DNA from: Amphiscolops sp. MND2022
Lineage: Eukaryota
Reading direction: 5' to 3'
NCBI GenBank assembly: GCA_964187785.1
Contig: OZ076409.1
Location: 72,294,001 to 72,358,000, forward strand
Length of the DNA: 64,000 bases
Shown: positions 790 to 27,468 of the stretch, piece by piece
Layout of the letters: each line of letters opens with the position of its first letter
How positions within the stretch are numbered: position 1 is the first letter of the stretch
Notes under the pieces: model-generated
Told to the model about the DNA's origin: nothing
The model's database searches: none
Seen by the model: the letters and a program-made list of their open reading frames with translations, nothing else
Position numbers and translations under genes: made by a program

Positions 790-2130
790 AAATCATACCA
801 TTTCCTAAAAAATTTCAAATGCCCCCCATTTGACGTATAAGAATAGCACAGAAAACTATCACATACCGATCGACTCTACTTCCATTGTAGATTACCAGAA
901 TTTTGTTTAGAACAATTTTTGACGGATGCAAAAAAAATTTAAACCCTCCAAAAAAGGGCCAAAATTACACGAAAAAATTGACCTTAAAATTTTAAAATGT
1001 CGAAAAATCATCAAAACCACAGCTTCTTGGGGTTCTATCAACTCCACGTGGTCCACAGAGTATGTTAAAACAAGTTTTACCCGTATTTGAGCAATATGTG
1101 AAAAAGCCGACTTTTTTGGGAATGAAAAACATACCATTTCCTAAAAAATTTCAAACGCACCCCATTTGACGTATAAGAATAGCACAGAAAACTATCACAT
1201 ACCGATCGACTCTACTTCCATTGTAGTTTACCAGAATCTTGTTTAGAACAATTGTTGACGGATGCAAAAAAAAATTAAACCCTCCAAAAATGGGCCAAAA
1301 TTACACGAAAAAATTGACCTTAAATTCTTAAAATGTCAAAAAATCATCAAAACCACAGCTTCTTGGGGTTCTATCAAATCCACGTGGTCCACAGAGTATG
1401 CTAAAACAGGTTTTACCTGTTTCTGAGCTATATATGAAAAAACCGACATTTTGGGGAAGAAAAACATACCATTTCCTAAAAAATTTCAAATGCACGCCAT
1501 TTGCCGTATGAGAATAGCACAGAAAACTATCACATACCGATCAACTCTACTTCTATTGTAGATTATCAGATTTTTGTTTAGAACAAATTTTTATGGATAT
1601 AAAAAATTTTTAAACCCTCCAAAAATGAGCCAAAATAACACGAAAAAATGGACCCTAAATTTTTAAAATGTCAAAAAATTATCCAAACCACAGCTTCTTG
1701 GGGTTCTATCAGCTCCACGTGGTCCACAGAGTATGCTAAAACAGGTTTTGCCCGTTTTTGAGCAATATATGAAAAAGCCGACATTTTTGGGGAAGAAAAA
1801 CATACCATTTCCTAAATAATTTCAAATGCAGGCAATTTGCCGTATGAGAGTAGCACAGAAAACTATCACACACCGATCAACTCTACTTCTTTTGTAGATT
1901 ATCAGAATTATGTTTAGAGTAAAGTTTTATGGATATGAAAAATTTTTATACCCTCCAAAAATGGGCCAAAATGACACGAAAAAATTGACCTCAAATTTTT
2001 AAAATGTCAAAAAATTATCCAAACCACAGCGTCTTGGCGTTCTATCAACTCCAAATGACCTTCAGAGTATACCAAACCAGGTATTGCCAATCTTTTGAGC
2101 AATATTTAAAAACACCGACTATTTGGCAAG
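790..2130. repeat. Internal tandem repeat, ~4 x 336 bp
   Basis: GARTAGCACAGAAAACTATCAC recurs at 841, 1177, 1512 and 1848. Confidence 0.9.
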
Positions 2131-2354
2131 AACACCATAATATGTTCCATATAAGAAGTGAATCATTCCACATATATACCCGGTCTAATATTTCCAACTT
2201 AGCGATAACATTTATACATGATGGTTTTTGAAAGTGAGCTTCATAAGAGGTTGAGATGTAATAATACGTAAATGGACCCTAAGTTTCATTGAAATCTCAA
2301 TGGAATACGTCCAATCAACTTCAATCCTAACTATTATATAACAATAAACACTTG

Positions 2355-2395
2355 AGTACATTCCATCTCCCCATCGGGGGAGATGAGAATGTACT
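2355..2395. other. Long imperfect inverted repeat; type example of the GTACATT internal hairpin
   Basis: AGTACATTC-CATCTCCCC-ATCG-GGGGAGATG-A-GAATGTACT. Homologues at 16388, 19076, 28359, 32450, 37220, 47954 and 52725. Confidence 0.9.
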
Positions 2396-3243
2396 TTTCA
2401 AAAGCCAAAAACTTCGAATTTTAAATCTTTTGTAACATTGTATGTAACTGTTGAAACGATGAACGAATAAAAATGCTTCTAGTACCTTCATCAATTTTTG
2501 CTTCAGCTCCTATTTCTGCAGAACAAAACCAAAAGACACACTTACAGCAGTTAAGTTCGATTGTATAACTCAGTGATATAAAGGTATGACTGAGGAAGTT
2601 CACAAGTTGTTTCAAAAGTTTCCGGCCTTCCAAAATCATGAAACGTCCACACAACCAAGATAGCAAGTGAAAGAATGCTGAATGAACCTTATTAGATGAG
2701 ATAAATAATGTGTGGAACTTGCCATTATCTCAAGATGACGTTGATTTATGATCTTTTAAGGATAGTTCGATATGTGACCACAATAGTGGAAAACTTATTA
2801 CTATTTGAAGAACACCGTGGAAAGCGTTCAGAAAGGACAGTATATTTGTTTCGAGCATGCATGCGTGTGTTCCTTTGGTGACGTTAGCTTAGTGTACATG
2901 ACGGAGGTATTCGAGAGATTATGATAGAGTTTACTCACAAGTCTTTGTTTTTTAAACTTTCTATGCCGTTGAGTACATTCGTAAGGTACATCCATCCCCT
3001 TCTCTGGGAATGTACGTTTGCCAAATGACTGTCATCCAAAATTCGTAATCCGGACGAGTTTAACTACATAAACATGTGATGAGCGTTTTCAATTCACAAC
3101 CGAATAACATTTTTTTCTCGAAAATGATGATGGTTTTGATTTTGATGTCTTCTACTTTTATCATCATGCAAACGACCTTACCATGTCTCTCTTCTGTCGT
3201 CATTTGTACAACGCCACATAGCGTTCCGACGCCCACCGTCTGT

Positions 3244-3263
3244 GGGCATGCCGAGGCATGCCC
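3244..3263. promoter_or_regulatory. Subterminal 20-bp palindrome GGGCATGCCGAGGCATGCCC (p53-response-element-like); 17 copies in the window
   Basis: Copies start at 3244, 4636, 18023, 19318, 28591, 33347, 38110, 40098, 42083, 44090, 48851, 53615, 55607, 57610, 59602, 61587 and 63574. It matches RRRCWWGYYY x2 with no spacer at 19 of 20 positions. The motif is seen directly; its function is inferred. Confidence 0.5.
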
Positions 3264-3320
3264 TTCGACGACGTATGCCAAATGAGCCATACCCGCACTC
3301 TGGAGTGCGGTAGCGGCTAG

Positions 3321-4707
3321 GTGGTTGGGGCGGTCCCCAGAACGCACAAGGAGGCGCGGGGAGGGTCCTGCGCCGACGTAGAATAATTTCATATAATACT
3401 AGTATCCTACATGGGTGTTTTAGAAGCGATTTTGGAATCTAACCGTAGGATTTGGATAATTTTTTGCATGCGGCCATAACTCGAAATTCTAAGAACTTTT
3501 TCCTACTGTCATTTTCACCGCAAATTGTTTTTTGTTGACTTATGGCCAAAAAACCGGAAATAACGTCCTTTTTAGACGTTATATCCGAAGTGTCGTCATA
3601 ACTTTTTTCCAGGGCATGCTAGCGTTCTCGTTCACTTTTACACTTAATTGCAGCATCTCAAAATACAACTGGTGGAAAATTTTGGTTGCATTCGGATCAC
3701 CCCCCACCGAGATAGAAGGGTTCCCCCCTCCAGTTTTACCCCCCAAATTTGCCAAAAAGCCAATTTTGAGCATGAAGCCGAGGGTTTAGCGTACCCGCAC
3801 CCTGTTGATGTTTTGTTGTACGTTTTGAGGTCAATCTGACGACATGTGAGGTTTTCACCCCCAACCCCCCCTGGGACCGGAAATGACACTTTTTTGTGTT
3901 TTTCGGCAGAATTTAGCCTGTTTCATTATTAGGCAGTCGTTTTAGGGACTCGTAGCAGGATATCGAAAGTGAAATACAACCTTATCACAACCCAGTGACA
4001 ACATGTTGGCCACTTGGAGGTATCATCATGACCGGAAGTGGGGTCAACCCCCCTTTTTGTGACCGCTTTTTGACCTTGTGCACCAAAATGCCAACAACTT
4101 GAGGCCTAATGACGCATTCAAATCTGTACAAAGATAGAATGTTAGACAACCGAAGTCCCGGAAGATCTTTAGCATATACCGGAAGTTACCCCCCATGACC
4201 GGAAGTTACCCAATGTGACCGGAAATGGTCCAAAAATTAATGTAAAGTTAATTTTTTCACCATTTCAAGACCACTTCGTTGAACATTTTCATTCCCAAAA
4301 CTAGCGTACTGGCTTGTTTTGCTGAAATTATGGAAATTGATGAGCTCTATCACCCCCGATAGCCTTCGAAGTTGACCTTGCGTCAACTTTGGAGGCTATC
4401 GATTCTGAAAATGAACAACAGAGTTCATTGTTGCTCTCGTTTTTTTCCGTTGTTTTTCCTCAAACATTCTTGAGACATAAAAATGGCCGTTAGTTGAAAT
4501 CAATATTTAGCCCATGTTATAGCTGGAGCAGCGAAGCGTTACACAGACTAGTGTGGTTTTGAAATTACATTATTTGAATTAACAACTGACCGTCTTAGTC
4601 AACTCCACACATTCATACCAACGCCCACCGTCTGTGGGCATGCCGAGGCATGCCCTTCGACGACGTATGACGAATCCACTCCAACGACACCCGCAGTCCT
4701 CAGCTAG
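3321..4707 (+). mobile_element. U2: 1387-bp unit, family C (related to U7)
   Basis: GTGG head with hairpins, CCGGAA cluster, GATAGCC-type hairpin at 4357-4401, palindrome at 4636-4655, CTAG end. Confidence 0.6.
4158..4226 (+). promoter_or_regulatory. Phased CCGGAA(G/A) motif cluster (ETS-like or iteron-like)
   Basis: CCGGAA at 4158, 4179, 4199 and 4219 (20-21-bp spacing). Spacing is retained in U7 at 17564, 17584 and 17604. Function is inferred only. Confidence 0.4.
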
Positions 4708-5783
4708 GTGGTTGGGGCGTTATTCCCCACGAAGTTCGCGGCCGCGGGAGACGGGACCCGCGGACCGCCCATCCAATGCAAAAATATACACTCTAAACAG
4801 CACCATTATAAACACGATCTCGAAAATGAACCGTAGGATTGTCTTGAAATTTTGCATACAGATAGAAGAGAAAATTCTAAGAACTTTTTCCTGCTGGCAC
4901 TTTTCCGAAAAAAATGTCCTTCATGGGTTTTTTCGGGTTTTTTTGGTTTTTTCTCATCTTTCTCATCTTTGATTAATCAATCACCGAATCAAAGGCCATT
5001 TTCAGCATGAAGGAATGCCCGTAGCAGCAAAGTGCACTTTTACAAAAATCATCAACGGTCAACGGTCTTTCGAACGGTCCAAAAAAATTTCCCCCCGGGG
5101 GCATCCAAAGTGCCGAAAAGTGCCAAAATATTTTTTTGGTCTGAATCATTCTGAAGAAATTGTTGATTTGAGCAGCAGGAACGGTCCGCACGGTCTCAAA
5201 TTGTAAGGGCAAAAATTGTCAGCGTTCAATGGCGGTTCCAAAAATATAAGTCAGTCACCTGTAGGAGTTGTAACAAAAAATCGATTTTTGGGTAATATGG
5301 CATGTTGAGTGGTTGGATGAGAAATACCCGTAACATGTTGAGTTTGATTTGATGCAGCAGTGGTTGCAGCTGCAGCAAACGTGAAAATGATAAAAGGGCT
5401 GGGATATATCACATGCACAAAGCAATGTTGCCATGGGGCTTTCCTTGTGCCGCAAAATGCCTCAATGCGATCATTATGTTTTTCCAAATGGGGTCGCAAA
5501 ACTAATTGTCACCGGTGTTCCTAGCGTTGCGCAGCAACTCGCAGGAACAACGGGGCTCTCCGAACGCAAAACGCAAGGCGCCCTTTCGTTGATTTGACGG
5601 CAGTCGCAGTTGATATTTTTTTGAATAAGTGATGAAATGTATCGTTGAATCCCAGAACATGTAACAAAAAAAAGGAAGGTGGAATTTCAACACATTGGTT
5701 TGTTGCTGATTTCACGTAAGCAGCAAACTTAATCAGCAACTCCTCAACTCCTCTCTCGTGGTTTGTTTAGCCTCCAGCGCTAG
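4708..5783 (+). mobile_element. U3: 1076-bp unit, family A short form
   Basis: Apparently identical to U11 (offset 16807). Shares its head and its last ~30 bp with long unit U5. Hairpin at 5512-5553. Confidence 0.65.
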
Positions 5784-6259
5784 GTGGTCAGGGGTGTTAC
5801 CCGTCAAAAATACTGCGAGGCCGGGGAGGGACCCGGGACCGAGCATATTATATAAGGATCAAATTCTACCTCTCCGACACTCGGTCATCTGGAGACGATC
5901 TCGAAAATGAACCGATAGGATTGGCTGAAAATTTGCACACAGATAGAAGAGCCAATTCTAAGAACTTTTTCCTGCTGACGTTTTGCCGGTTTATAAACAT
6001 CTTCATGGTTTTTTTTGGGTTTTTTTGGTTTTTTTAACCTTTTTTATCATTGATTAATCAATCACCGAATCAAAGGCCATTTTCACCATGAAGCAACGCC
6101 GATAGAGGCAAAGTGCATCTCTATGAAAATCATCAACGGTCAACGGTCTTTTGAACGGTCCAAAAAAATTGCCCCCTGGGGGCATCCAAAGTGCCGAAAA
6201 GTGCCAAAATAATTTTTTTGACTGAATCACTTGCATCAAATTGGTGATTTGAGCAGCCG

Positions 6260-7800
6260 GAACGGTCCGCACGGTCTCGGACCATAAGGGTAAAAAGTGT
6301 CAGCATTCAATGATGGTTTCAAAAATACAACTCATTCACCTGTAGGGGTCCTAATAAAAAAGTCGATTTTTTGGGGTGTATCGCTTGATGAGCAATGATG
6401 ACATTTTTTATACAGTACTTTTCATTCAATTACTCAACACGCAGCACCAGTAGCAGCGGAAGTCATATTTATGAAAAAGATTAGGGGGCTAGGGTCTATC
6501 CACGGTACTACCGCAAAGTAGGCCTGGGGCAATGATTGTGCCAAAAAATGCCTTATAGTGAAGAATGATTTTTTGCAAATCAGCTCATTTTTACAAACAT
6601 GTAAATTCCTCGTCAACAACGGTCCGCACGGTCTCCGACAATAAATTCAAAAAATGTCAGTGAGCTATGGTGACATGGAAAATGACATTGGATAAGCTCT
6701 GGGGGTCCTCTGAAAAAATTTGAATTTTTTGAGTCACGGTCCGAGTTCATCTCATACTTTGTATGAACTATTCATAATCATGTTACTCATAACTGAGTAC
6801 AGATAGCACCGTGGGTCATCTTTATGAAAATGAACATTGGCCAGTGGTCTAGCGATTGAGTGCAGAAAATATACCTTAGTGGCCATAGTGAAAGAAAAAA
6901 ATTCCAAGAAGTGGTATTTTCAATTTTTCAAGTCGACTCGGAGTCACAAAATAGTGATTTTCTCTTCAGGAACGGTCCGAACGGTCTCGGACCATAAAGT
7001 CAAATTTCGTCAGTGTATCATGGTGGCGTCCAAAAACCCATCAGAACAAGTGTAGGTAGCTCCTGAACGAATTTCGAATTTTTACGTGGGTCAGAGAGTT
7101 ATGGTGTCACATTGTAACAACATTTCGGGTATGCATATCTCCTGCCAGAGTACAGATAGCATCATGGGTCATCTTTTTGAAAATGAACGTGGGCCACTGG
7201 TCTATCGAATGGTTTTAAAAAATTTTCAATAAGTGCTGCATGGCGTGAATAAAATGCCAAAATGTTGTATTTAGCATTTTTTTGCACGACTCGGACCTAC
7301 AAAAAGCCCATATCTGCTCCACCAACGGTCCGTACGGTCTTCGACCATAAGCTCAAAAAGTGTCAGTGTGCTATGGTGACGCCCAAAAACCCATCAGTAC
7401 ACTGGTAGAGTGCTTCTGAAAAATTTTGGTGTTTTCACGTGAGTCCGAGAGTTATTGAGAGTTTTGTTGTCACATCGTAACTACATTTCGGTTACGTATA
7501 TCTCCTGACAGAGTACAGATAACAACATGGGTCATCTTTTGGAAAGTGAACGTGGGCCACTGGCCTACCGAATGGTGATAAAAAGTTTTCACCAGTTGCT
7601 ATACGGAGTGATGAAAGTGCTTACATGTGTTACATTGCATTTTTTCGAGCGACTCGGACTTACAAAAACCTCATTTGCCCGCCAACAACGGTCTGCACGG
7701 TCTCCGACCATAAGGTCAAAAACTTTTCGTGAGCTATGGTGACGCCCAAAAACCCATCAGTTTAGCTGTAGCATGCTTCTGTAAAAATTTGGACTTTTCG
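6260..7800. repeat. Internal diverged tandem repeat, period 353-363 bp
   Basis: AACGGTCYGHACGGTCT at 6261, 6618, 6971, 7324 and 7687. Confidence 0.88.
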
Positions 7801-9642
7801 TGCTCACAAAGTGAGATTTCGAGTTTTGAAAAACAATTTTTCAACCAAAAAACATGTTTTTCAGTGCGCAAAACCAATTTTTATATCACAATAGTCACAT
7901 AAAATGTTGTTTTGCATAACATGGCACGTGAATAGCATGAGGAAAGTGCCCACTGTGATTTTGGAGTCATTTTCAAAAAATCAGCTGCCATTAGACGTTA
8001 CACAAGAGAAAATGATACTTTACATATCGATACTTTGGTTGAGTGGAAAATAGCTATAGTGCTTTTTCGGTCAATCAAGACTCTTTTTTGTTCACAACCA
8101 AGTGTACAGTTGACGTGAAACACATATTGACCTTCCACAATGGTTATATTGTGATTTTGATTGCCAAAAGCCCAGTTGACAAACAAAAATCCAACCAAAA
8201 ATTTGTTTCCAATTCAATTTTTGAAGTATAGGACCGCCAATTTTTGCCCACAAACATCAACTAACATATTTTCTTCGTCCAATGGCATCGAAAAAACGCA
8301 ACTGGGCATTGACATGACGCTGACACTATCATTCGAGTAGTCATGGGCAACAATATTTACTAATCGAAAGGAAAATTCGTCGAAAATTCATACAACATCA
8401 CTTTTTTGGCGGAGTCGAATTGACAAAATGAAGCTTCATCACCAACTATTGGCTTCTAATGCAACCCACTGGCACTCTAATTTAGGAAAATGATGTTTAC
8501 ATAACTTTCAAGGAAGTTTATCAGAATCTGAGGTACCTAAAAATATCATACTGAATAGACATAATACTTCAAAATTGGCATTTTTCAAGATGTGTCACCA
8601 CTTTTTCGGTATCGGCGGTCCTATTGACACTGGTTTTGGTCGAACACTAAACATGAGTATCAACCAAGGTGGATACCAGACTTGTGAAAACAATACAAGG
8701 ACTTTGGACATGTCAAAAGTAGTGATGAGAAGAGATATTATCCAAAACTTCTTGTTATATGTCATATTCCTTTCCACCATTCTAATCGATGCTTGTCGGT
8801 TAAGGTATTAACGCCCAACAACAAACTCAGTGACAGCAAACAAGTCGAGTACCGTTATAAAAAGTGTTTACAATACCTGTTTCCCCGTTCTTGACACATT
8901 TTCCACCGTGTTCGTTCTTAACATGTAAAAATTTATCGCCTAACACCCAATTTTTGACAGGTCGAAATTTCGATTTTCGTCTTTTGAACACCACTATTGT
9001 GTCTGACGTAACCTGTGGCCTCCAAAACACTCAAAGATAAATGTATGACTGGTATAAAAGGCTTCAGTGGCTTGTAAGCCCCGATAACATGTTTTGCAAA
9101 GAAATATTCAAGTACTAAGTGAAAATTTCGAAGTCACATTGGAACATTAAAAACAGAATACATGAAAAACTTACCTATTTTCCGTCAATTACTATTAATT
9201 TATTATCAGTGTTGCGAATATGAGGTCTATACAGGGGTCTATATGAAAACTGTGGTGCATAAAGCATTCTGTTACACAAAACTTACCATAGCACCAAAAA
9301 AACTTCACTTTATTTTTTCCATTTTATTTGAATAAGTTGATCAACTAAACATCAATCAGCAGTTGAATTAGTAGGGTTATACAATTGTGGATGTGTTTCA
9401 AAGTCTTTGACTTTCCCGTTGTTCCAAACTCCTTTGTTACTGCTGAAAAGAGTCATATGTTTTACAAGCAATGTTCTTTAAAAGACAATTAGCAAAGACC
9501 GAAGCAACTTTACAAAAGGTAAAAAATTCTCAATATGTCTTTCAGTACTCGAATTTGGGTGAATGTATAGATTGGATTTGCATTTTTATAAAGACATTAT
9601 AACTGAATCTAGCATTTTTATAAAGAGCTTAAAAAAAAATTC

Positions 9643-9689
9643 GTGATAGCCTTCCAAGTTGGCCTTCGGCCAACTTGGAAGGCTATCAC
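9643..9689. other. Perfect inverted repeat (22-bp stem, 3-nt loop); type example of the GATAGCC internal hairpin
   Basis: GTGATAGCCTTCCAAGTTGGCC-TTC-GGCCAACTTGGAAGGCTATCAC. Imperfect homologues at 4357, 14383, 17762, 26298, 39726, 41711, 43701, 55232, 57224, 59227, 61213 and 63201. Confidence 0.92.
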
Positions 9690-10675
9690 TACAAACATCA
9701 AAAAACAATAATCCCTCTTCTTCCTGATTAGTCGTGGACAGTATTGTTGAGTCTTCCACTGTGTCTGTATTTGATAACATGTAACAAGGTGACACTTTAA
9801 TTTCGCTAAAGCTTATCATCACTGAATTCAAACACAACATTTTTCTTGGTGTCTGTCAAAAATACCTAAACAAATCTAAACATTCAAACTCTATGAATGC
9901 TTTGTGGTATGTCCAGTCGTTTTACTATGTCCTCCGTTATTGGCTTGAGGAACCCCGCATCCCCTCCACCTGACAATACGTTACATCTTCTGTTGAAAGC
10001 TTTCATTAGTAGCGTCATATTGCCAACAACTTCTAATGGAGTGTCAGCATTCAAAATTATGTAAAGAAAGGTATTATTCATGGTAATCAGATTGTGAAAA
10101 AAAACTTACCAAAAACAAATGAAAAAAAGTTCTGCGGCATACATAACACAAAAAGTCTTTTGAAAAGTTTTACAATGCTACTTTTTTAAAGTTTCTCATC
10201 GTTTGTTGTTTAATTTCTGAAGGGTAAGTCAAAATTTCACCTCTTCTCGTATCTCATCCCATTAGAACGGGGTACTATGGGCTGTTTTTATTGAATACTA
10301 ACCAACTCAGTGGCCATCACTTTGTATCCTAACATTACCAAGGATTTGAAGAAATCGCTCTGCATTAGTGACAAATTCATTTGTAGGAAAGTTTCATCGT
10401 CACTGATGTTATAGCAGTGGTGTTTCGAGGTTTGCATCACCTTGCATGATCAACGGAGTCTGCTTCAACGGAAGGCTCAAAATACATTATCGTGGTTTCA
10501 ACGGCATTCATTGTTGTTAATTCTGTGGCATGCTGGTGATGAATTTTATAGTTGATTCCATGACAAATTCAACAAAAACAGGTAGCTGTTTTTTTGTGTC
10601 ATACTTCAAAAACAAACTTTCAACCGGTTTGTTTAGGCCTCTACCTAGCAGTGCTCTAAATTGCCCCATCGCTAG

Positions 10676-13600
10676 GTGGTTGGGGCGTTATTCCCCACGA
10701 AGTTCGCGGCCGCGGGAGACGGGACCCGCGGACCGCCCATCCAATGCAAAAATATACACTCTAAACAGCACCATTATAAACACGATCTCGAAAATGAACC
10801 GTAGGATTGTCTTGAAATTTTGCATACGGATAGAAGAGAAAATTCTAAGAACTTTTTCCTGCTGGCACTTTTCCGAAAAAAATGTCCTTCATGGGTTTTT
10901 TTGGGTTTTTTTGGTTTTTTCTCATCTTTCTCATCTTTGATTAATCAATCACTGAATCAAAGGCCATTTTCAGCATGAAGGAATGCCCGTAGCGGCAAAG
11001 TGCACTTTTACAAAAATCATCAACAGTCAACGGTCTTTCGAACGGTTCAAAAAATTTTCCCCCCGGGGGCATCCAAAGTGCCGAAAAGTGCCAAAATATT
11101 TTTTTGGTCTGAATCATTTTGATGAAATTGTTGATTTGAGCAGCAGGAACGGTCCGCACGGTCTCGGACCATAAGGTCAAAAATTGTCAGTGAGTTATGG
11201 TGACGACCAAAATGACATTGGTTGAGCTGTAGGAGGCCTCTGAAAAAATTTGAATTTTTTGAGTCTACAATCCGAGCTGAACTGTTACGTATTATGAACT
11301 TTTCAGTACTATGTTGCCAATGACCGAGTACAGATAGATGCATGGGTCAGCCTTATTGAAATGAACATTGGGCACTGGGCTACCGGTTGAGTGCAAAAAT
11401 TATAGCCTAGTTGCTGTAGTCGAAGAAAAAAATTCTCAGAAGTGTTACTTTCAATTTGTCATGTTGACTCGGAGTTACAAAAAGGTGATTTTGTCGCCAA
11501 CAACGGTCCGAACGGTCTTGGACCATAAAATCAAAAATTGTCAGTGTGCTATGGTGACGCCCAAAAACCCACCAGAACATGCGTAGGATGCTTCTGAAAA
11601 ATTTTCGAAATTTTACGTCGGCCCAAGAGTTATTGTGTTACATCGTAACAACTTTTCGTGTATGCATATCTCCTGACAGAGTACAGATAGCATCATAGGT
11701 CATCTTTTTGAAAGTGAACGTGGGCCACTGGTGTATTGCATGGTTATAAAAAATTTTGACTAAGTGCTGCATGGCGTGAATAATATGCCAAGATGTGGTA
11801 TTTACGATATTTTAGCACGACTCGCACTGACAAAAAGCCTATTTCTGCCCCAGCAACGGTTCGAACGGTCATCAAGTATAAGGTCAAAAAATGTCAGTGT
11901 GACATGATGGCGCCTAAAAACCCACCAGAACATTGGTAGGAAGCTTCTGGAAAAATTTCGATTTTTTACGTGGGCCCGAGAGTTATGATGTTACATCGTA
12001 GCAACATTTCGTGTATGCATATCTCCTGACAGAGTACAGATAGCATTATGGGTCACCTTTTTGAAAAAGAACGTGGACCACTGGTCTATCGATTGGTTGT
12101 AAAAAGTTTTCAATCACTGTTGCACGGCGTGAATAAAATGCCAATATGTGGTATTTAGCATTTTTTTGCACGACTCGGACCTACAAAAGTCCTATTTCTG
12201 CTCCACCAACGGTCCGTACGTTTTTCGACCATAAGGTCAAAAAGTGTCAGTGTGCTATGGTGACGCCCAAAAACCCATCATTACACTTGTAGAGTGCTTC
12301 CGAAAATTTTTGGAATTTTTAGGTGAGTCCGAGAGTTATAGAGAGTTATGTTGTCACATCGTAACTACATTTCGGGAATGTATATCTCCTGACACAGTAC
12401 AGATACCAACATGGGTCATCTTTTGGAAAGTGAACGTGGGCCACTGGCCTACCGAATGGTGATAAAAAGTTTTCACCAGTTGCTACAGGGAATGATAAAA
12501 GTGCTTACATGGGTTACATAGCATTTTTTCAGGCGACTCGGACTTACAAAAAGCTCATTTGCTCGCGAACAACGGTCTGTATGGTCTCCACTCATAGGGT
12601 CGAAAATTTTTCGTGGGCTATGGTGACGCTCAAAAACCCATCAGTTCACTTGTGGGATGATTCTGTAAAAATTTAGTGTTTTCGTGCAGACTATGTTACA
12701 TATTACATTGGGAACCGTGTTTTTTTCTCACCAAAATCATGTTTCTGAGTGCCCAAAAACAATTTTTAAAGCCCAGTAGCCACCTAAAATGTTCTTTTGC
12801 ATAACATGGGATGTGAATACCGTGAAGAAAGTGCTCACTGTGGATTTGGAGTTATCTCGACAAAATCAGCTGCCATTAGACGTTACATTACAGAAAATCG
12901 TACCTTACATATCGATTCATGGGTTGAGTAAAAAACAGCTAAAGTTCTTTTTCAGTCAATCAAGACTCTTTTTTGTTCACAACCAAGTGTACAGCTGACG
13001 TCGAACCCATTTTGACCTTCCACAATGGTTATAATGCGATTTTGAGGGACAAAAGCCTCGTTGACCAACAAAGTTCCAAGATGAAATTGCTTTCCAAATC
13101 ATTTTTTGAAGTATAGGAACGCCATTTTTTGCCGACAACCATCAAATATCCACTTCTCTTGGCCCAGTGGCTTGTGAAAAATACACCTGGGCATTGACAA
13201 GGCACATGGACTTTAATTCGAGTAGTCATGTGCCACAACATTTGCTAATCGATAGCAAATTTTGTTGAAAATTGATACAACATCACATTTTTGGTGGACT
13301 CGAAATGACAAAATGGAGCTTCAGCAGCAACTATTGGCTTTTAGTGCAACTCACTGGCACTGTAATGTAGGAAAAAACGGTTTACAGTAGTTTCATGCTA
13401 CTTTTTCAGAATCTGAGGTACATAAAGTATCATACTGAATAGACATATAACTTCAACATCGGAATTTTTCCGGATGTGTCACCACTTTTGTGGTATCAGC
13501 GGTCCTACCAACAGTGTTTTTGATCTAACACTAAACCCGAGGATCAACCAAGATGTATATCAGACTTGTAAAATCAATGCAAGGACTTTCGACATGTCAA

Positions 13601-15408
13601 AAGTACTGATAAGAAGAGAAACTTCTCAAAAATTCATGTTATGTGTCATATTCCATTCCACGTTTTTTAATCGGTGCTTGTCGGTTATAGTATTAACGCT
13701 CAACAACGAGCTTACTGACAAGAAACAACTTGTTAACAGTTATAAAATGTATTTATAATACCACCATGCTCGGTCTTGGCAGATTTTTCATCCCATTCGT
13801 TCTTTACGTGTAAACTTTACTTCCCAAAAACACTATTTTTGTCAGGTCGAAATTCGAATTTTCGTGTTTTGATCAAAATTATTGTGTCTGACGTAACCTG
13901 TGGCCTCCAAAATACTGAAAAACAATAGTATGACTGCTATCAAATGCTTCAGTGACATGTGGGGCACGTTAACACGTTTTGCTAAGAAAAATTCCACTTC
14001 GAAGTGAAAATTTGGAAGACACATAGTCACAATAAAAACTGAATAGATGAAAAACGTACCTATTGCCCGTCAACCACTAATGATATAGTATCAGTATTGC
14101 GAATTAGAGGTCTATAGAGTGGTGTATGGGAAAACTGTGGCGCATAAAGCGTTGTTCATAACAAAGTTCTTCCAATATCTACAATTGTGTTTTCAAAAGT
14201 TCCACTATATTTCACATATTCACAGAATGTGATTGATGCTACCTAGTAATGGAAAACCACTGTCGAATCTTCTTTAGTGGACTCAACAGTCCTGAAAATC
14301 ACAGACATACATCACGTTTCATAATTATACGCTCGAGGCTACACAATAATTTATTTCCGCTAGTTGCTGATAACTGAATTTCCTGATAGCCTTCCAAGTT
14401 GGCCTTGTGTCAACCTGGGAAGGCTATCAGTACAAAACACAAAGAACACAGCTTGTTGTTGCCTCTAATTTGCTGTTGTTTTCGTTAAGATTTTATGGTA
14501 CCGTTTCTTTATAACATGTGGTTAACATAAGACAATTTCTCTCTGTATGGAACGACATCCATTGATAAGAAAGATTACAGTTTTTTAGTTGAAAAAGACC
14601 TTGAAACTACTGCGCAATTCATGCAATTTATCCAAAACGTTCAATCATTTCAATAATTTGCGTCCCATTGAGCGTCACAAACCACTATACCTCCTTCAAC
14701 TGACAGTACAAAGACACATCATCCTTTGACCGTCCACAGAGCGAAGGCGTGGCGAGGCACGCCTTTCGAAGACCTTTGGCAAAACAGTACTAACGTCCGT
14801 TCGTGACGCATACGAAAAACTATTTTATTTTCAACAATCGTCATAAAGCATATTTGTTATATCGGCCTTTCGTTACATTTGTGCAATGATACCTTTATCA
14901 GTGAAATATTAAGTTATACATAGGTAACTGCAGTAACTTCGTGATTACCAAAGTGATATCAAAATGTTGTTACATAAATATTTCTGACACAGCGAAATTC
15001 CAAAGTGTCATTAGGCACTTTTTCAGTGCTCGTTAGGAAAGCGAGCACTTTTGCTTGGACCAAACATGCTCGTATCAGACTGGTCATGTGAAGGCAAGTA
15101 ACGGAATCGAAACAATGTTCCTCATCAACTTTTTGGTAGCGTCAGAAACACAATGTTTGCTTTTTAATGTCCCCCAATCGTTGTTAGCTTCTGTTCATAG
15201 AGAATTGTTTCTGCGCAGACCAAAATATGGCAAGTTATCCAATACGCCTGATAACGGTTTTGCCCCACACAGAACTATCACTTAACATTTTTGTATGTTG
15301 ATATCTTTTTACCCCGTTGTTCAACAACTCATGCACCTTCATTTCTTCTTCAACAACTAACTCGCCACCTCCTTGTCGTCTCGTGGTTTGTTTAGCCTCC
15401 AGCGCTAG
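10676..15408 (+). mobile_element. U5: 4733-bp unit, family A long form
   Basis: Head near-identical to U3/U11; body close to U12. Hairpin at 14383-14430; relic subterminal block at 14706-14783. Confidence 0.65.
11148..12690. repeat. Internal diverged tandem repeat, period 353-363 bp
   Basis: AACGGT anchor at 11148, 11502, 11855, 12208 and 12571. Confidence 0.88.
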
Positions 15409-16692
15409 GTGGTTAAGGGCGTCCCCTTACCTCTGTCGCCGGCGCGGGGAGGGTCCTGTGCCGGCGCCCCTTGTAGAAAATATACGTAAAGGATGGAAAA
15501 ATATAAATGCGATTTTTTAAACTAACCGTTGGATTCGGCTAATTTTTTGCATGCAGCCTCCTTGGACCAATATAAGAACAAACTCCTACTGGCGTTTTTC
15601 TGGGAAAATTTTTTTTGTTGACTTATAGACAATTTTAGGGTCAAAAAATGGCCTTTTTTTTCAATTTTTTGCATTTTTTCGCTTTTTTTCGCAAAAAAGT
15701 GTAACTTCGTCCACACAACTAGTATTGCAAGTGGCTGCATGCAGAGAGCTAATGAACAGACAAGAAAAATGAGCTATAGAACGCTTGTCTACGACAACCT
15801 GACGTTGACTTATGGTAATTTGAGTAACCGCATTTTTTTGTTTTTGCCTCGAATTTGGTACTTAGTGACCCATATCTCACTATACAGTTGTCTGAGCAAG
15901 ATCATTTATAATAACGTTTTTGTTGTCCATTAATAGTGCAACAACTGATCAGGGGTAAAGTTTTCTGTGAGACAACGTTGAAAAAAGATATTGGTGATTT
16001 TACACCCAGAAAAACGGTGTTTTGCGAACTTCAAAATTTTTTTTAACTTCAGGCCTTCCAAAGTTGAGAAACTTCCACACAACTAGTATTGCAAGTGAAT
16101 GCATGTGGAAAGTGCTTGAATAGACGAGAAAAATGAGCTATTATAAAGCTCTGTAGCTTAACCTGACGTTGACTTATGATAATTTTAGTTTCAGCTTGCT
16201 ATGTGTGAAAAAATTCAAAAATTGAAAATGGAAGCTAAGTCTCATCCAAAACTCATCGGAATACGTTCAATCCAAGCCAGAGCGATTTGTTCCCAGTTGT
16301 AGAGTGCAGCAACACCATTCAAGATTATTTGACCCATTTTAATAGGTTTTTGACTCTGTCTTATCCATCCGAAAGTTCGAAACAGTTGAGTACATTCCAT
16401 CTCCCCTCCGTGGGAGATGGCAATGTACTCGCAAAAAGCCAAGTACTATTCCCCTTTTTATACCTGCACTGGCCCTAGAAATACAGTAGCGTGAGCTCCA
16501 GGTGGTTTGCAGTAGTCTTAACGTGTGTTGTAACTTTGCTACAAATCTAACTATGTTACTAAACATGAAAAAATTGTTTCAATACAAATTTTTTTCCAAT
16601 CATTATATGTCATCAATATACATATATCCATCCATTTACTACTACCTACCCCATCACCCGCCCCTCGCATCCCTTCATGGTGCAGCCTCTGG
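15409..16692 (+). mobile_element. U6: 1284-bp unit, family D; ends CTGG
   Basis: GTGG head, hairpin at 15437-15466, internal 364-bp-period duplication (CCACACAACTAGTATTGCAAGTG at 15711 and 16075), GTACATT-type hairpin at 16388-16430. Confidence 0.55.
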
Positions 16693-18099
16693 GTGGTCGG
16701 GTATTTTTTTTTACTCGTATATGACGTTTGCGAGGCTTTGGGGAGGGCCCCGTGCCGAGCCTGTTATCCGAAATTCACCACTACCAGATCTGGTATAAAT
16801 AAGCGAGATCTCGAAAACTATCCATTAGAATTCCCTGAAATTTTGCATGTGGCTCCTAATCAAGGAGTAATGAAAAAGTGTAGGAGTGACAGTTGCTGAA
16901 AAAATTGTCATTGTTGCACTTTTTGCGCATTTTTTGTCGCATTGTTGCGTTTTTTATGTCATTTTCCACTTTGGAGGCAAAAAAGTCATATATGCTTTGT
17001 TCCTAGCGTATCAAGTGTGGAGCACGAAAAGTTGCAGCATCTTTGATTACGTATGCTGTGAAAATTTGGTTGCCCTCGGCTTACCCCCCACTGAGATAGA
17101 GGGGTGCTTCCGGTCTTTTTTGACCCCTAAAATTGGGAAATTGCTAATTTTCGTAATAAAGCCGTAGATTTAGCGTGTGCACACCCTGCTGAAGATTTGT
17201 TAGGCATTATGAGATAAATCCGATGACATGCGTTCAGTTCACCCCCATCACCCCCTGGACCGGAAATAAACTTTTTTGTGTCCTTTCAGACCGGAAGTCT
17301 CCATTTTCAACGGTAAGGAGTCCTTGTACGAGCAACTAGCAGGGCATCAAAATTGAAGTACAATGTGGGGTGAGCCTAGTTACCACGTGTTGACCAGTCA
17401 TGGGTACCGCCTTGACCGGAAATGGGGTCAAAACCCCCCTATTGGTCGATTTTTTATCAGTTTGACTAGTGTTTGGTCCACATACAAGTCGGGTAAGTCA
17501 ATTGAACCAGTGTGAGCATAAACTGCACGTTCACTGCGTAGCCGTAAATGACACTGACAGATTCCGGAAGTAACCCCCTGGGACCGGAAGTTGTCAATTT
17601 TGACCGGAAATGGTCCAAAAAACTGCGTGAAAGCAGTTTTTCATTAGTTTTAGAAGTCATTTTTTTACTTTTTCTACGCTGATTGCTTTTTTCTACTCAC
17701 AAAGGTAACATCGTGCCTCGTTTGGCTAAAGTTCTGAAAAATGATCACCTTTATCACCCCCGATAGCCTTTCAAGTTGACCTTGGGTCAATCTTGAAGGC
17801 TATCTGTTCTGAAAACGAAAAATAGGAAAATTTTGTTTTTTCTTATTTTCCTTGATAATTTCCCCTAATTAATTTTGTTAAGCAAACCCTTTTGTTGAAC
17901 TGAATGATCTGAAAAATGTTCAGAGGTGTCACCCTGGCAAGGATTATTTGACGTTGAAGTAAACTGAGAATGAGGGTAGTATTAGACAACATCACACACA
18001 CTTACCAACGCCGACCGTCTGTGGGCATGCCGAGGCATGCCCTTCGATGACGTATGCCAAATCTGCGCCACCCGCACTATTGAGTGCGGTAGCCGCTAG
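16693..18099 (+). mobile_element. U7: 1407-bp unit, family C
   Basis: Collinear diverged homologue of U2. Hairpin at 17762-17804, palindrome at 18023-18042, terminal hairpin CCGCACT-ATTG-AGTGCGG then CTAG. Confidence 0.6.
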
Positions 18100-19386
18100 G
18101 TGGCCGGAAATTTTTTTTTTCATCAAAATCTTTGCCATTGGGGGAGGGGCCCCGGATGGCCAGTAGTACGGCATAGCTCCCTACGGAATCCAGGCAGAAA
18201 AAACGTGATTTTGGAAACTAGCCGTCAGAATTTGCTCAAATTTTGCATACGGCTTCCTATAACAATCCTAAGAACTAATCCCTACTGGCATTTTGCCCAA
18301 AAAACGCAAAAAGTTGGTCAAAATCTTAGTTTTTTGGTCAAAAAATGGCAATTTTTCGAAAAAAAAATTTTTCAGAGACAATTACTCGTAACTGGTTCAC
18401 CCAGCGCAAAAACGCCTAGCTGATTTATTGTTGGGCACTTCATGAGGAGTGCGTATACAAATTTTTGTCCAGATCGGAAAAAAAATGACTAAGTATTAGC
18501 CGGAATTCGGACGCATTTTTTCGCAAATTTTTGAAAACCTAGTCTATCTCTGCCGTTTTTTGCCCAGATTTTTTTCCAGGTCCTCTCCTAAAGGCCTCCC
18601 CTGGCCGGTTTACTTCCCAGAAAAACCATTTGGCCCTAAATACGGAGTTTCAGCGTTCTAGCATTCCCGGGCGAAAAGATGTGGGACTTAGAAAAAATTC
18701 AAAATTTTTCAAAAAAATTTTTTTTCGTTTTCCGGCCCCCCAATGAAGGGGAACGACCCCCCAACGAGGATTATTGGTGAATTCACGTGGAAAGGCCTTG
18801 TTTTGTGGAGCAAATTGCCGTTTAGAGCGACTTTTTATCTTAACTTGACGTTGACCTCTGTCGTTTTGAATTTGATATTAGTATGCGTTGAGCATGTGAA
18901 AAGTTGATGATTTCAGTTGTTCTCTCGTGTTCAAGCCATTGAGATACAAGCGGTAGTGATCAAAATGTGATTTATCGCAATTTGATGGTGTTTTTGGTGT
19001 ATTTTGATTCTTTTAAATAAAAAGTTGTTCTTTATATATTTGGTGTATTGATTCAAATGAACAAGAAACAGTTGAGTACATTTCATCTCCCCCCTTGTGG
19101 GGGAGATGAGTATGTACCCGCTAAATGACACGCACAATGGCCCAATTTTACTTTTATGCGACGTTTACAAGGCTTTTGCGCAAGCCCACTAATATTTAGA
19201 CTGGTTTCCTTTTCTTTTACTCCAAAATTTTCCGTACTAACCACCTTACGCACCACCAGCTCATCGTAACATCTGTAACGCCAACGCCACATACTCTCAC
19301 TAACGCCCACCGTCTGTGGGCATGCCGAGGCATGCCCTTCGACGACGTATGCCAAATAGCGCCACTGGGCGCCCAATTTTGTCTAG
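18100..19386 (+). mobile_element. U8: 1287-bp unit, family D-like
   Basis: GTGG head with conserved box, GTACATT-type hairpin at 19076-19117, palindrome at 19318-19337, CTAG end. Confidence 0.55.
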
Positions 19387-20456
19387 GTGGTCAAGGGGGA
19401 TGCCCATCAGAAAATATTGCGAGGCCGGGGAGGGTCCCGAGAGCCGAGCACATTCTATCAATTCCTACCTTCAGGATTGCGAAGTATTTTAACCGATCTC
19501 GAAATTCACCCGTAGGATTTGTCTGAAACTTTGCATGTGGCTTTATCTCAAAAATTTAAGAACTTTTTTCTGCTGACGTTTTTCCAGGAAAATTCATTTT
19601 GTAGGGTTTTTTTGCGTTTTTTTGGTTTTTTTCATCTTTTTTCATCTTTGATTAATCAATGACCGAATCAAAGGCCATTTTCACCATGAAGGAAAGCCCG
19701 TAGCGGCAAAGTGCACTTTTATGAAAATCATCAACGGTCAACGGTCTTTCGAACGGTCCGAAAAAATTTCCCCCCGGGGGAAACCAAAGTGCCAAAAAGT
19801 GCCAAATATATTTTTTTGACTGAATCACTTTGATCAAATTGATGATTTGAGCAGCCGGAACGGTCCGCACGGTCTCGGACAATAAGGTCAAAAATTGTCA
19901 GCATCCAATGGGGGTTCCAAAAATGTAATTCGTTCATTTGTAGGAGACATCAGAAAAAAGTTGATTTTTTGGGGTATATGTCATTATGAGTGATTGGATG
20001 AGAAATAATTGTATCACTTTCAGTTGGATATGATGCAGCACAGGAAGCAGCTGCAGCAAACTTGAAACTGATTATGGGGCTGGGGTTTACCCTCTGTATT
20101 GAGCAAAATAGCCCTAGGGCATAAGTTGTGCCAAAAAATGCCTCGAAGTGATGATTTGGTTATTGCAAATCGATCAGCAAAATTTATTGTCACCGGTGTT
20201 CCGAGAGTTGCGCAGCATCTCGCAGGAACAACGGTGCTTGCTTAGAAAGCAAAAAACCACAAAATCCCTTGAGTTAAGTTGACGGCAGTCACCATAGACA
20301 TTCACTCGTCAGGGTGATGATATTTATCGTTCAATCCCAGAATAACTTACAAAAAATTGCTAGCCTCAATATTTCTTTTTCATACTCCATTAGCAAAGGT
20401 TGCGCTGTTAAGTTTAGGCCTTTTACTAGCAGTGCTCTAAATCGCTCCATCGCTAG
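19387..20456 (+). mobile_element. U9: 1070-bp unit, family A short form
   Basis: Body homologous to U3; both termini resemble those of U4. Hairpin at 20191-20236. Confidence 0.6.
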
Positions 20457-21514
20457 GTGGTCGGGTGTTTTACCTTTACAGAGTAGTGCGAGGCCGGGTA
20501 GGGTCCCGTGACGAGCTTGAAGAATAGCCTGCTAAAAATATACATGTTGGGGGGGGGTCTACGGAGACGATCTCGAAAATGAACCGTTAGAATTTATTCA
20601 AACTTTGCATGCGGACATAGAATCAAAATGTAAGAACTTTTTCCTACTGGCACTTTTCGCTCCATACCCTGTGACGGAAGTTATGAGCAAATGTATGTCG
20701 AAATCACCCATTTTTCGCATCTTTTCAGTCGCTGCTCCTCAGCCATTGGAGCCAATAGGCCGAAACTTTTTGTGTGAGGTACAAATGAAGTGGGCTACAA
20801 GATGGCCAAAAATTTTTGGCCAGGTCCTAATACATCGGGAAATATGATAGAAAATATACACCAAAAAAGGTGATTTTTTGACACTTTTTATCATGACTTC
20901 CGAAGTGCCCAATGGAATAGGTAGTGCCTATGGATAAAAATGAATGGTTTTATGTTTAATCGAAAGAGGAACAAATTTTGGTTTTTTTGGCCAAAAAAAA
21001 GTTCTACAAAAGTTCTACCAAAATTCGAAAAATTTAGAATTATTCCAAAAAAAAGGTTTTTTCGTCTTTTTTGATGTTTTTTCACATTTTGAGGTCAAAA
21101 ACGAGGTACCCGAGCACTTACACTGACTTTTTAGGGGAATTTGACACATTTAATTTTTATTTTTGGTTAATGATTACACTTTTAAAGTTTTAATCCCAAA
21201 TTACTGCAATCTTTTCTCAGTTGTTGGAATTCTATGTTTGTTGGTAAATGACATGTAGAAAGATCGCCGATGTTCCGGGAGAACGCGAAGCGTTTCGGAG
21301 GAAGATTGGCGACAAACGATAAAAGTCTGTGCAACTTATGTGCTTCCAATGAGGTGCTTGGTAGAATTATCAAGATGAAAAAATAACTTTTTTGAGGTAG
21401 TTTGTTGTGAAATGAAAACGATTAAAGTTTACAATTTTAAGTTGCACCAACTTCAGTTTCAATCAAGTATTGTCTGAATAGGCCTTACTGGTAGTTGGTA
21501 CCTGCCTCCACTGG
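20457..21514 (+). mobile_element. U10: 1058-bp unit with unique interior; ends CTGG
   Basis: U4-like head and conserved box; its own hairpin TCGCCGAT...ATTGGCGA at 21264-21312. Confidence 0.55.
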
Positions 21515-22590
21515 GTGGTTGGGGCGTTATTCCCCACGAAGTTCGCGGCCGCGGGAGACGGGACCCGCGGACCGCCCATCCAATGCAAAAATATACACTC
21601 TAAACAGCACCATTATAAACACGATCTCGAAAATGAACCGTAGGATTGTCTTGAAATTTTGCATACAGATAGAAGAGAAAATTCTAAGAACTTTTTCCTG
21701 CTGGCACTTTTCCGAAAAAAATGTCCTTCATGGGTTTTTTCGGGTTTTTTTGGTTTTTTCTCATCTTTCTCATCTTTGATTAATCAATCACCGAATCAAA
21801 GGCCATTTTCAGCATGAAGGAATGCCCGTAGCAGCAAAGTGCACTTTTACAAAAATCATCAACGGTCAACGGTCTTTCGAACGGTCCAAAAAAATTTCCC
21901 CCCGGGGGCATCCAAAGTGCCGAAAAGTGCCAAAATATTTTTTTGGTCTGAATCATTCTGAAGAAATTGTTGATTTGAGCAGCAGGAACGGTCCGCACGG
22001 TCTCAAATTGTAAGGGCAAAAATTGTCAGCGTTCAATGGCGGTTCCAAAAATATAAGTCAGTCACCTGTAGGAGTTGTAACAAAAAATCGATTTTTGGGT
22101 AATATGGCATGTTGAGTGGTTGGATGAGAAATACCCGTAACATGTTGAGTTTGATTTGATGCAGCAGTGGTTGCAGCTGCAGCAAACGTGAAAATGATAA
22201 AAGGGCTGGGATATATCACATGCACAAAGCAATGTTGCCATGGGGCTTTCCTTGTGCCGCAAAATGCCTCAATGCGATCATTATGTTTTTCCAAATGGGG
22301 TCGCAAAACTAATTGTCACCGGTGTTCCTAGCGTTGCGCAGCAACTCGCAGGAACAACGGGGCTCTCCGAACGCAAAACGCAAGGCGCCCTTTCGTTGAT
22401 TTGACGGCAGTCGCAGTTGATATTTTTTTGAATAAGTGATGAAATGTATCGTTGAATCCCAGAACATGTAACAAAAAAAAGGAAGGTGGAATTTCAACAC
22501 ATTGGTTTGTTGCTGATTTCACGTAAGCAGCAAACTTAATCAGCAACTCCTCAACTCCTCTCTCGTGGTTTGTTTAGCCTCCAGCGCTAG
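21515..22590 (+). mobile_element. U11: 1076-bp unit, copy of U3
   Basis: Same sequence and same internal ORF-track peptides as 4708-5783, with different neighbours on both sides. Confidence 0.65.
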
Positions 22591-27304: not shown

Positions 27305-27468
27305 GTGGTCGTTAGCATGGGATTTTCTTTATGAGCGTAGTCCACTTTTTTTAGGCCGGGGTAGGGTCCCGGGCCGTTACCAATTTGTGGTCGTTAGCAT
27401 GGGATTTTCTTTATGAGCGTAGTCCACTTTTTTTAGGCCGGGGTAGGGTCCCGGGCCGTTACCAATTT
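27305..27468 (+). repeat. Exact 82-bp tandem duplication of the unit head
   Basis: 27305-27386 equals 27387-27468; both copies begin GTGGTCGTTAGC. Confidence 0.92.

Follow-up and report, generated by a model that had tools for sequence, protein, structure and literature searches.

What a short, interchangeable hairpin does in each unit of a long repeat array, and what sets its place there, is the question raised by a 64-kb window (1..64000, + strand) of contig OZ076409.1 from Amphiscolops sp. MND2022. The window, meaning here the whole 64,000-nt stretch that was analysed, is a head-to-tail array of 26 non-coding segments (U1 to U26) separated by 25 junctions; U1 is truncated on the 5' side and U26 on the 3' side, and the 24 units in between are complete and measure 1058-4892 nt. 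In a profile search, each of U1 to U25 carried one high-scoring hairpin of ~45 bases (25/25) and no unit carried two intact ones; the profiles were built from these same copies, and when the search was repeated with lineages left out all T1 and T2 copies were recovered. The hairpins are of a GATAGCC type (T1) in 13 units (U2, 4, 5, 7, 12, 16-18, and 21-25), of a GTACATT type (T2) in 8 units (U1, 6, 8, 13-15, 19, and 20), and of a CCGGTGTTCC type (T3) in U3, U9, and U11, with U10 carrying a TCGCCGAT type that the original prediction for this locus had listed as a fourth. The unit numbering and type assignments of that prediction are reproduced exactly with the 25 junctions.

Hairpin position scales with unit length

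In all complete units (24 of 24), which span a 4.6-fold range of lengths, the centre of the hairpin falls at 0.763-0.801 of unit length. The coefficient of variation of this fraction is 1.4%, compared with 60% for the distance from the 5' end and 55% for the distance from the 3' end. A slot at a fixed distance was rejected on these values, and the "same slot" of the original prediction gives way to a fixed fraction of unit length. For the seven short groups (1.06-2.0 kb) the length downstream of the hairpin follows 0.206 L + 0.5, where L is unit length (r 0.99); the same line predicts 1008, 974, and 982 nt for the three long groups, for which 988, 970, and 930 nt were observed. Permutation of upstream against downstream lengths gave an arrangement as tight in 3 of 5040 cases with seven classes and in 1 of 120 with five classes (long units pooled), and under uniform draws for six classes, a generous null, 0 of 2,000,000 were as tight. 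The fitted ratio of upstream to downstream length is 4.0, with an intercept of -89 +/- 42 nt. As a control, the tail motif near the unit 3' end lies 50-59 nt from that end in 17/17 units with an intact tail; this constant end distance indicates that length scaling is peculiar to the hairpin. Along the array the spacing between hairpins varies from ~1.1 to 4.8 kb. We consider it very probable that the fractional position of the hairpin is selected.

Sequence comparisons between units suggest that a fraction of ~0.79 was arrived at by a different route in each of three long lineages. The first ~800 nt and the last ~270 nt of U4 match the short unit U9, the 3' match with z 17.4, and are separated by ~3.8 kb, as if a U9-type short unit had gained this length ahead of its T3; the T3 copy of U4 at 0.95 has decayed and its T1 at 0.794 is intact. 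The long units of head family B (long B units) end in a 3' part like that of U6 and U8 (z 10.0 and 17.1), whose T2, now at 0.93, has decayed, the other T2 lying at 0.80. U5 and U12 share a T1-to-tail module with the 2-kb units (z 9.6) and extend ~0.6 kb past a presumed old 3' end, placed in U5 near 14810-14823 by a decayed tail motif and apparently read through; measured to the old end, their hairpin fraction would be 0.90. The read-through extension also contains twin small hairpins, at ~14997-15050 in U5 and 26880-26940 in U12, ~400 nt from the 3' end, which may represent a fourth family of hairpins in decay.

One intact hairpin per unit is conserved

Among the eight 2-kb units (77-100% identical) 2 of the 44 T1 sites vary, against a background of 35%, and 0.6% of same-size windows are as quiet. 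Five long B units, which represent two lineages with 78% identity, were compared over their last 1200 nt: the intact T2 has 0/40 variable sites against a background of 24%, and the decayed T2 of the same units has 16/46. The comparison of U5 with U12 (93% identical), in which T1 shows 0/44 variable sites, has little power, with 10.6% of windows as quiet. In four out of five unit pairs a match between the hairpins (z 6.5-11) is accompanied by none in either flank (z -0.5 to 1.5); for the remaining pair, U6/U13, the hairpin flanks are related too. That the hairpin is quiet while the background and the spare copies vary argues that it is under selection and that one is needed, and we rate as highly probable its role as a cis-element that is selected and that each unit needs once.

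The decayed T2 copies in U1, U15, and U20 score 11 bits in the profile search versus 60-73 for intact copies, the T2 remnant of U14 and U19 is visible in alignment only, with no model match, and the decayed T3 of U4 was detected at E 0.001. The claim that no unit has two hairpins and no complete unit has none is therefore correct for intact copies, but decayed second copies are present in U1, U4, U14, U15, U19, and U20. Intact copies folded on the + strand beat shuffles in 11/11 cases (z -2.65 to -11.1), two decayed copies that were folded did not (z -1.24 and -0.10), and an unbiased fold scan placed the hairpin among the top-ranked windows of each unit listed, with part of U13 outside that listing. 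All 25 intact hairpins, together with that of the metagenome contig L001 described below, have one orientation, a count that reflects few independent placements.

The U10 hairpin is identical to the U9 T3 at 34 of 55 positions (z 6.5) and gave z 4.8 in a second T3 comparison, with 0/1000 shuffles reaching either value; six cross-type hairpin pairs gave z -1.1 to 0.4, and the match of the U10 hairpin to a leave-out T3 model is weak (E 0.23). By its resemblance to T3, then, the U10 hairpin is a distant member of that type, which reduces the predicted four hairpins to three families and leaves their mutual exclusivity, one intact copy per unit in 25/25, as proposed. Comparison of units likewise confirmed that hairpin type is independent of head family, and the notion of an exchangeable functional module is upheld by three unrelated families that swap, each an island of constraint whose redundant copies decay.

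The description of the hairpin as structure-defined is borne out in part. Loops are 3-9 nt, stems ~18-22 bp, and flanks unpaired. In the T2 stem, 14 of the 19 pairs never vary over 6 distinct versions; among 7 distinct versions of T1, one inner pair is A-T, G-C, or G-T and two flanking pairs have changed on both sides, and 3 of 18 pairs have changed among the three T3 sequences. The reported stem change (TTGGCC/GGCCAA versus TTGACC/GGTCAA), at this inner pair of T1, exists between U4 and U7. The 3' arm of T2 keeps a one-base bulge of changing identity, its loop is variable, and a longer loop region is tolerated; the U10 hairpin has diverged further from T3 than the dead U4 copy, yet U10 folds and the U4 copy does not. 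These features, the bulge, the variable loop, and a folding U10 versus a non-folding U4, favour a real fold, as does the preference for + strand folding given below. A covariation analysis gave a T2 score that was matched by 194/500 shuffles and is not significant; with arms conserved letter for letter, this indicates that the sequence is read as well as the fold.

Two smaller observations concern the hairpins themselves. The T1 of U4 (9643-9689) forms a perfect 22-bp stem where other T1 versions are imperfect, which may be due to arm-to-arm correction. A short AAACA motif lies 10-12 nt 5' of the T2 stem (16379-16389; 553-563 in L001) and is kept in 6/6 distinct versions; the T2 3' flank is variable compared with this kept 5' motif, which hints at polarity.

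Unit ends, array growth, and coding content

With a slash marking the junction, 24 of the 25 junctions read CTRR/GTGG and one reads CTAG/GTGC (42160/42161), so that unit 5' starts are GTG(G/C) in 25/25 and 3' ends are CTRG in 25/25 (23 CTAG and 2 CTGG). The junction motif was picked by eye; its backing is a ~200-nt head that aligns 3' of the motif in 14/14 representative units and in L001, and an exact 82-nt duplication of the U13 5' terminus. The duplicate begins at the same G as U13, which supports GTGG as the unit 5' end, and the internal copy is preceded by TT, not RG. RG/GTG is the only part common to all 26 junctions seen (25 in the window and that of L001). Within the window all junctions are unit-to-unit, with no unique flank or empty site.

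U3 (4708-5783) and U11 (21515-22590) differ at 0/1076 sites and have different neighbours on both sides, which suggests recent unit-precise movement; U21 and U23 differ at 1/1987 sites. It seems that single units move, with exact ends, and that larger duplications occur besides. Positions 28558-45495 and 44058-61003 form a higher-order duplication with an offset of ~15.5 kb and 92% identity, and to judge from this alignment part of the array is the product of larger-scale copying. The long units U4, U5, U12, U14, U15, U19, and U20, of unlike make-up, are all 4.71-4.89 kb and are padded by unrelated internal tandem arrays with a 353-nt or 336-nt period. Short units group by hairpin type into narrow size classes (1058-1076, 1278-1287, 1387-1407, and 1983-2008 nt), and a size limit may act on units as well.

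The first ~75 nt of every unit (28665-28730; 884-945 in L001) contain two hairpins with stems that vary freely from family to family. In the second the loop has an invariant GGG, and such non-Watson-Crick pairs as occur in the 4-bp core of this second hairpin are all G-T on the + strand; the head hairpins look structure-defined from this pattern of change, and more so than the internal hairpin. At the other end, a ~55-nt tail motif with a palindromic core (38093-38147) is intact in 17/25 units and in L001, with 2/44 variable sites, like T1, and is absent from 6/25 units, namely all T3-ended units and U6. Of 16 representatives, 8 have a clear terminal 3' hairpin (-6.7 to -13.4 kcal/mol), which in the other 8 is weak or absent. 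No junction-spanning hairpin specific to a unit's own two ends was found, the mean being -3.24 kcal/mol versus -3.35 kcal/mol for other pairings.

The window contains nine stop-to-stop frames of at least 120 aa, of which the seven scanned gave no match at the Pfam cut-off. Substitutions in four unit pairs showed no clear codon periodicity, and 21 of 115 gaps were multiples of 3; a coding origin of the units was rejected on the Pfam result and the lack of a codon pattern in substitutions and gaps. An ARAGORN search for tRNA returned 0 genes.

A scan of metagenomes with the tail motif yielded a sole locus, the independent contig L001 (OBOP01004400.1; 1172 nt), which is 60% identical to U8 over ~870 columns. 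It carries a T2, with the outermost pair G-C rather than A-T, and a tail, followed by a junction that reads CGAG/GTGC at 883/884 and leads into a U2-like head. Its T2 ends 278 nt before the junction, compared with 264-269 nt in U6, U8, and U13.

The hairpin as a putative second-strand origin

We favour, as plausible though not yet as probable, the explanation that the units are non-autonomous Helitron-like rolling-circle elements and that the hairpin is the start site of the second strand, placed by a speed ratio of ~4:1. The fixed 5' end, CTRG 3' ends, terminal hairpins in half of the representatives (8/16), read-through, and repeated 5' terminus are marks of rolling-circle elements (PMC4778049, PMC5148889; sources are cited throughout by PubMed Central (PMC) number, and for individual passages of each). 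A fixed fraction at any length would most simply reflect two processes of fixed relative speed that finish together. From these features we infer mobility, rolling-circle chemistry, a displaced strand, priming, and the speed ratio, with the identity of the displaced strand read from end polarity.

In such a cycle a transposase supplied in trans would nick the + strand at its fixed 5' end, GTG, and this strand would be peeled off by a slow fork. The hairpin would fold once the fork had passed and be recognised by sequence plus fold, and a minus strand primed there would run toward the 5' end about four times faster than the fork. With the hairpin at ~0.79, copying of the upstream part by the minus strand and passage of the fork through the downstream part would end together, and closure at the CTAG end would make the element a double-stranded circle; synthesis from an earlier site would arrive at the protein-bound, still-open 5' end before circle closure, and a later site would slow the cycle. 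Circles could then re-enter at existing CTRG/GTG junctions and so build a mixed array. Lagging-strand synthesis on the displaced strand has been proposed for Helraiser, whose circles must be double-stranded to integrate and for which unprimed naked single-stranded circles were not converted (PMC5876387). Where the single-strand origin (sso) lies in plasmids and ICEBs1 has been explained by the timing of exposure and circle closure (PMC4595007), and the light-strand origin (OL) of mitochondrial DNA (mtDNA) is a hairpin that is uncovered after two-thirds of the circle (PMC6056714).

A number of observations weigh against this explanation. The fraction rule was seen post hoc, in about seven lineages of one array, and the direction of the three histories of the long units was inferred from which copy had decayed; L001, without a 5' end, is too short to bear on the rule. 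A fixed fraction shows the ratio of two processes, not which end the hairpin marks, and a terminus at the hairpin would give the same fraction. No base-skew step was found at the hairpin (Wilcoxon p about 1), substitutions among the 2-kb copies showed no significant strand bias, and the T2 covariation is, as stated, not significant. A preference for + strand folding, which speaks for the explanation (of 20 distinct hairpins 14 fold better on that strand and 5 worse, and 15/18 heads fold better), rests on related copies, by which the count is inflated. Within the 64-kb window no transposase or autonomous partner, such as a RepHel with the same ends, was seen, the open reading frames scanned being below the Pfam cut-off. 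Foreign cassettes inserted between the ends of Helraiser are mobilised (PMC5876387), and a canonical Helitron therefore requires no internal origin. The definition of HLE1 includes a 5' TC and a 3' CTRR (HLE1 and HLE2 are defined in PMC11417382, PMC4067079, and PMC13085455), whereas the units begin with GTG in 25/25; and a search for exact inverted matches between the first 250 and last 450 nt of 16 units found no counterpart of the 11-18-nt (sub)terminal inverted repeats of Helitron2. With a 5' GTG instead of TC and without such repeats, the units are filed as neither HLE1 nor HLE2. Finally, OL needs a loop of at least 10 nt (PMC6056714), compared with 3-9 nt in the unit hairpins.

We regard as unlikely a reading in which the hairpin of the same mobile units is the meeting, stop, or resolution point of two forks of unequal speed, either starting at joined ends or diverging from the hairpin, with a timing of ~4:1. 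The fixed fraction and the decay of misplaced copies would be explained equally well, and invariant arms would suit a bound protein; a second initiation would, however, be needed at the 3' end, yet 3' ends are least conserved and 6/25 are without the tail motif, and the Helitron passages of PMC4778049 and PMC5876387 contain no two-ended mode. It is improbable that the units are integrated satellites of a single-stranded DNA virus or a plasmid-like helper, with the hairpin as a packaging or helper-protein loading signal. A packaging limit could account for unrelated long units that converge on 4.71-4.89 kb and for the tight short size classes, and one polar, bulged hairpin per unit would be in keeping with such a signal, but a limit of this kind fixes total size, not a fraction across a 4.6-fold range. 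Exact-pattern scans found 0 loci in viral contigs and 0 in prokaryote genomes, and blastn of U8 against phages and plasmids gave no match; the viral, phage, and plasmid collections hold little from eukaryotes. No more credence is given to a hairpin that acts in RNA, either as the signal by which a unit-length transcript is primed, processed, or packaged in an RNA-mediated cycle, or as the small-RNA precursor envisaged in the original prediction. Two-part stems with a bulge are frequent in RNA as binding sites for proteins, lentiviruses prime the plus strand a second time at a set fraction, from the central polypurine tract, and G-T pairs favour the + strand more with RNA energies (15/20). Precise 5' ends, variable 3' ends, and the absence of poly(A) tails and of 5'-truncated copies nevertheless fit DNA elements, as do the internal 336/353-nt arrays, and bases 1-44500 gave no Rfam family at gathering level (one chance match fell below it) and there was no tRNA. 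miRNA-type precursors have a long stem with basal extension, one preferentially conserved arm, and a known family; here the stems of ~18-22 bp are too short and the flanks unpaired for a Drosha/Dicer precursor, both arms are invariant and equally conserved, no Rfam family was matched in bases 1-44500, and scaling with unit length is not to be expected of a small-RNA precursor.

Invariance of both arms would also suit a palindrome that is a double-stranded or cruciform binding site under host selection, for example for a centromeric or chromatin function, and transposon-built tandem arrays can be centromeric (bioRxiv 10.64898/2026.09.17.752431, in the passages cited). This we consider very improbable, for it gives no reason for one copy per unit, for the decay of spare copies, or for a per-unit fraction in an array with spacing of ~1.1-4.8 kb, and the T2 loop varies in length while a one-sided bulge is kept. 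There is hardly any likelihood that the hairpins are neutral passengers, homogenised by gene conversion and arm-to-arm correction, with a fraction that was inherited or arose by chance. Many units are recent duplicates (the 15.5-kb higher-order repeat), the perfect U4 stem could be a template-switch correction, and independent lineages are few; conservation stops at stem edges, however, same-sequence spare copies in one unit decay and are not homogenised, and three different rearrangements yield the same fraction, with a tightness that none of the uniform draws reached.

Other candidates were dropped on inspection. These were an integron attC-like site (the hairpin is internal, not at the junction), a telomere-resolvase site (the arms are asymmetric and looped), and a self-cleaving ribozyme placed in the head; ends of a group II intron or introner (GT...AG occurs in most units, but 2 end in TGG) and a minus-strand retro-element (the + strand is the better-folding one) were likewise set aside.

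Comparison with known systems

The units resemble Helitron1 and HLE1 in their CTRR-type 3' ends (25/25 CTRG, although CGAG in L001 does not fit); the short hairpin that those elements often have ~10-12 nt before the 3' end is clear in 8 and weak or absent in 8 of the 16 representatives (PMC11417382, PMC4778049). Precise head-to-tail junctions are shared with Helitron1 (PMC11417382, PMC4778049), and a fixed 5' end with variable read-through 3' ends is shared with Helraiser (PMC4778049). Unlike Helitron1 and HLE1, which insert between A and T with no duplication of the target, the array has RG/GTG rather than A/T junctions and mixes families within one long array, and an obligatory-looking internal hairpin at a fixed fraction is undescribed in the Helraiser passages. 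Gene-less units with conserved end modules, a 5' hairpin, and internal satellite-like arrays are reminiscent of Helitron2, Helentron, HINE, and FoHeli elements (PMC7492417, PMC4067079), and the repeated 5' termini of FoHeli (73/85 nt; PMC5148889) compare with the 82 nt of U13. The longest exact inverted matches in the 16 units were 8-12 nt, mostly AT-rich, and in no shared place (imperfect repeats were outside this test). The units differ from Helitron2, Helentron, and HINE in having no subterminal inverted repeats, T-rich ends, or TT target, ending instead in GTG and CTRG, and in having a length-scaled internal hairpin.

Replitrons, reported from plants, algae, and protists (PMC10288648), share a left end directly after RG (25/25 window junctions and L001) and a precise left with a looser right end (PMC10288648). 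In the units no terminal direct repeat is demonstrable, the common junction core being also readable as two abutting ends, the heads carry two hairpins, and no transposase, which in Replitrons is a Y1 Rep that has no helicase, was seen in the window. The sso of rolling-circle plasmids and ICEBs1 may be the functional counterpart, as an interchangeable, polar stem-loop that acts on the displaced strand, lies late in it, and is redundant when doubled (PMC4595007, PMC5714925). The units differ in their eukaryote-type context, in having a single 40-47-nt hairpin where an sso has ~200 nt with several stems, and in a hairpin position that scales with element length, which is not among the sso features given in the passages of PMC4595007 and PMC5714925. 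In mtDNA, as proposed for the units, one hairpin exposed part-way by strand displacement primes the other strand (PMC6056714), but the units have three hairpin families and hold ~0.79 over a 4.6-fold length range.

Full-text searches of the literature on Helitron-like or other eukaryotic elements, with most subscription journals, Repbase, and Dfam outside their scope, found no account of an internal hairpin that scales with length, and the units themselves may already be catalogued as unclassified repeats. Our verdict is that the observation is real and stronger than at first described, and that the units are probably a variant of a rolling-circle-type element that follows a positional law. 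It is conceivable, and we put this forward with more reserve than the second-strand origin itself, that they represent an undescribed eukaryotic rolling-circle class with GTG...CTAG ends that targets its own junctions and has a dedicated, swappable second-strand origin, tuned to ~4/5 of its length by the speed ratio of two polymerase machines. If this is true, the DNA sequence itself records an in-vivo rate ratio, and internal satellites and read-through tails of non-autonomous elements would be shown to be open to selection as length spacers rather than junk. The result would also bear on how the peeled-off strand becomes double-stranded in eukaryotic rolling-circle transposons. Priming is directly testable with a 45-nt site in three interchangeable versions and a sharp positional rule, and the positional signature can be used for finding the family and the missing transposase in other genomes. 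Whatever its role, a cis-element whose position follows element length across a 4.6-fold range is unusual.

Coordinates of the features

Table 1. Unit starts, hairpins, and other mapped features of the array, in window coordinates. Fraction is hairpin centre divided by unit length.
Unit	Unit start	Feature	Position	Strand	Fraction	Remark
U1		intact T2	2356..2394	+		926 nt from 3' end; unit cut 5'
U1		decayed second T2	2968..3018	+		profile, 11 bits
U2	3321	T1	4358..4400	+	0.763	
U3	4708	T3	5510..5555	+	0.767	
U4	5784	T1	9645..9687	+	0.794	perfect stem
U4		decayed T3	10415..10458	+	0.95	within 3' end homologous to U9
U5	10676	T1	14385..14428	+	0.788	
U5		decayed tail motif	14731..14782	+		marks presumed old 3' end
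U6	15409	T2	16390..16428	+	0.779	
U7	16693	T1	17762..17804	+	0.775	
U8	18100	T2	19076..19117	+	0.775	
U9	19387	T3	20191..20236	+	0.773	
U10	20457	T3, distant	21265..21311	+	0.786	
U11	21515	T3	22317..22362	+	0.767	
U12	22591	T1	26300..26343	+	0.791	
U12		decayed tail motif	26635-26686			
U13	27305	T2	28359..28397	+	0.776	without 82-nt duplicate; 0.789 with duplicate
U13		exact 82-nt duplication of 5' terminus	27305..27468	+		from first G of U13
U14	28665	T2	32452..32490	+	0.800	
U14		shared ~200-nt head (example)	28665..28870	+		5' GTG, two hairpins, then two conserved boxes
U15	33425	T2	37221..37259	+	0.801	
U15		decayed second T2	37833..37883	+	0.93	
U15		3' end (example)	38093..38186	+		tail motif, short terminal hairpin, CTAG
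U16	38187	T1	39728..39771	+	0.788	
U17	40170	T1	41713..41756	+	0.786	
U18	42161	T1	43703..43746	+	0.780	
U19	44167	T2	47956..47994	+	0.800	
U20	48929	T2	52726..52764	+	0.801	
U20		decayed second T2	53338..53388	+	0.93	
U21	53692	T1	55234..55277	+	0.787	
U22	55679	T1	57226..57269	+	0.781	
U23	57687	T1	59229..59272	+	0.787	
U24	59674	T1	61215..61258	+	0.787	
U25	61659	T1	63203..63246	+	0.788	
U26	63646			+		unit cut 3'

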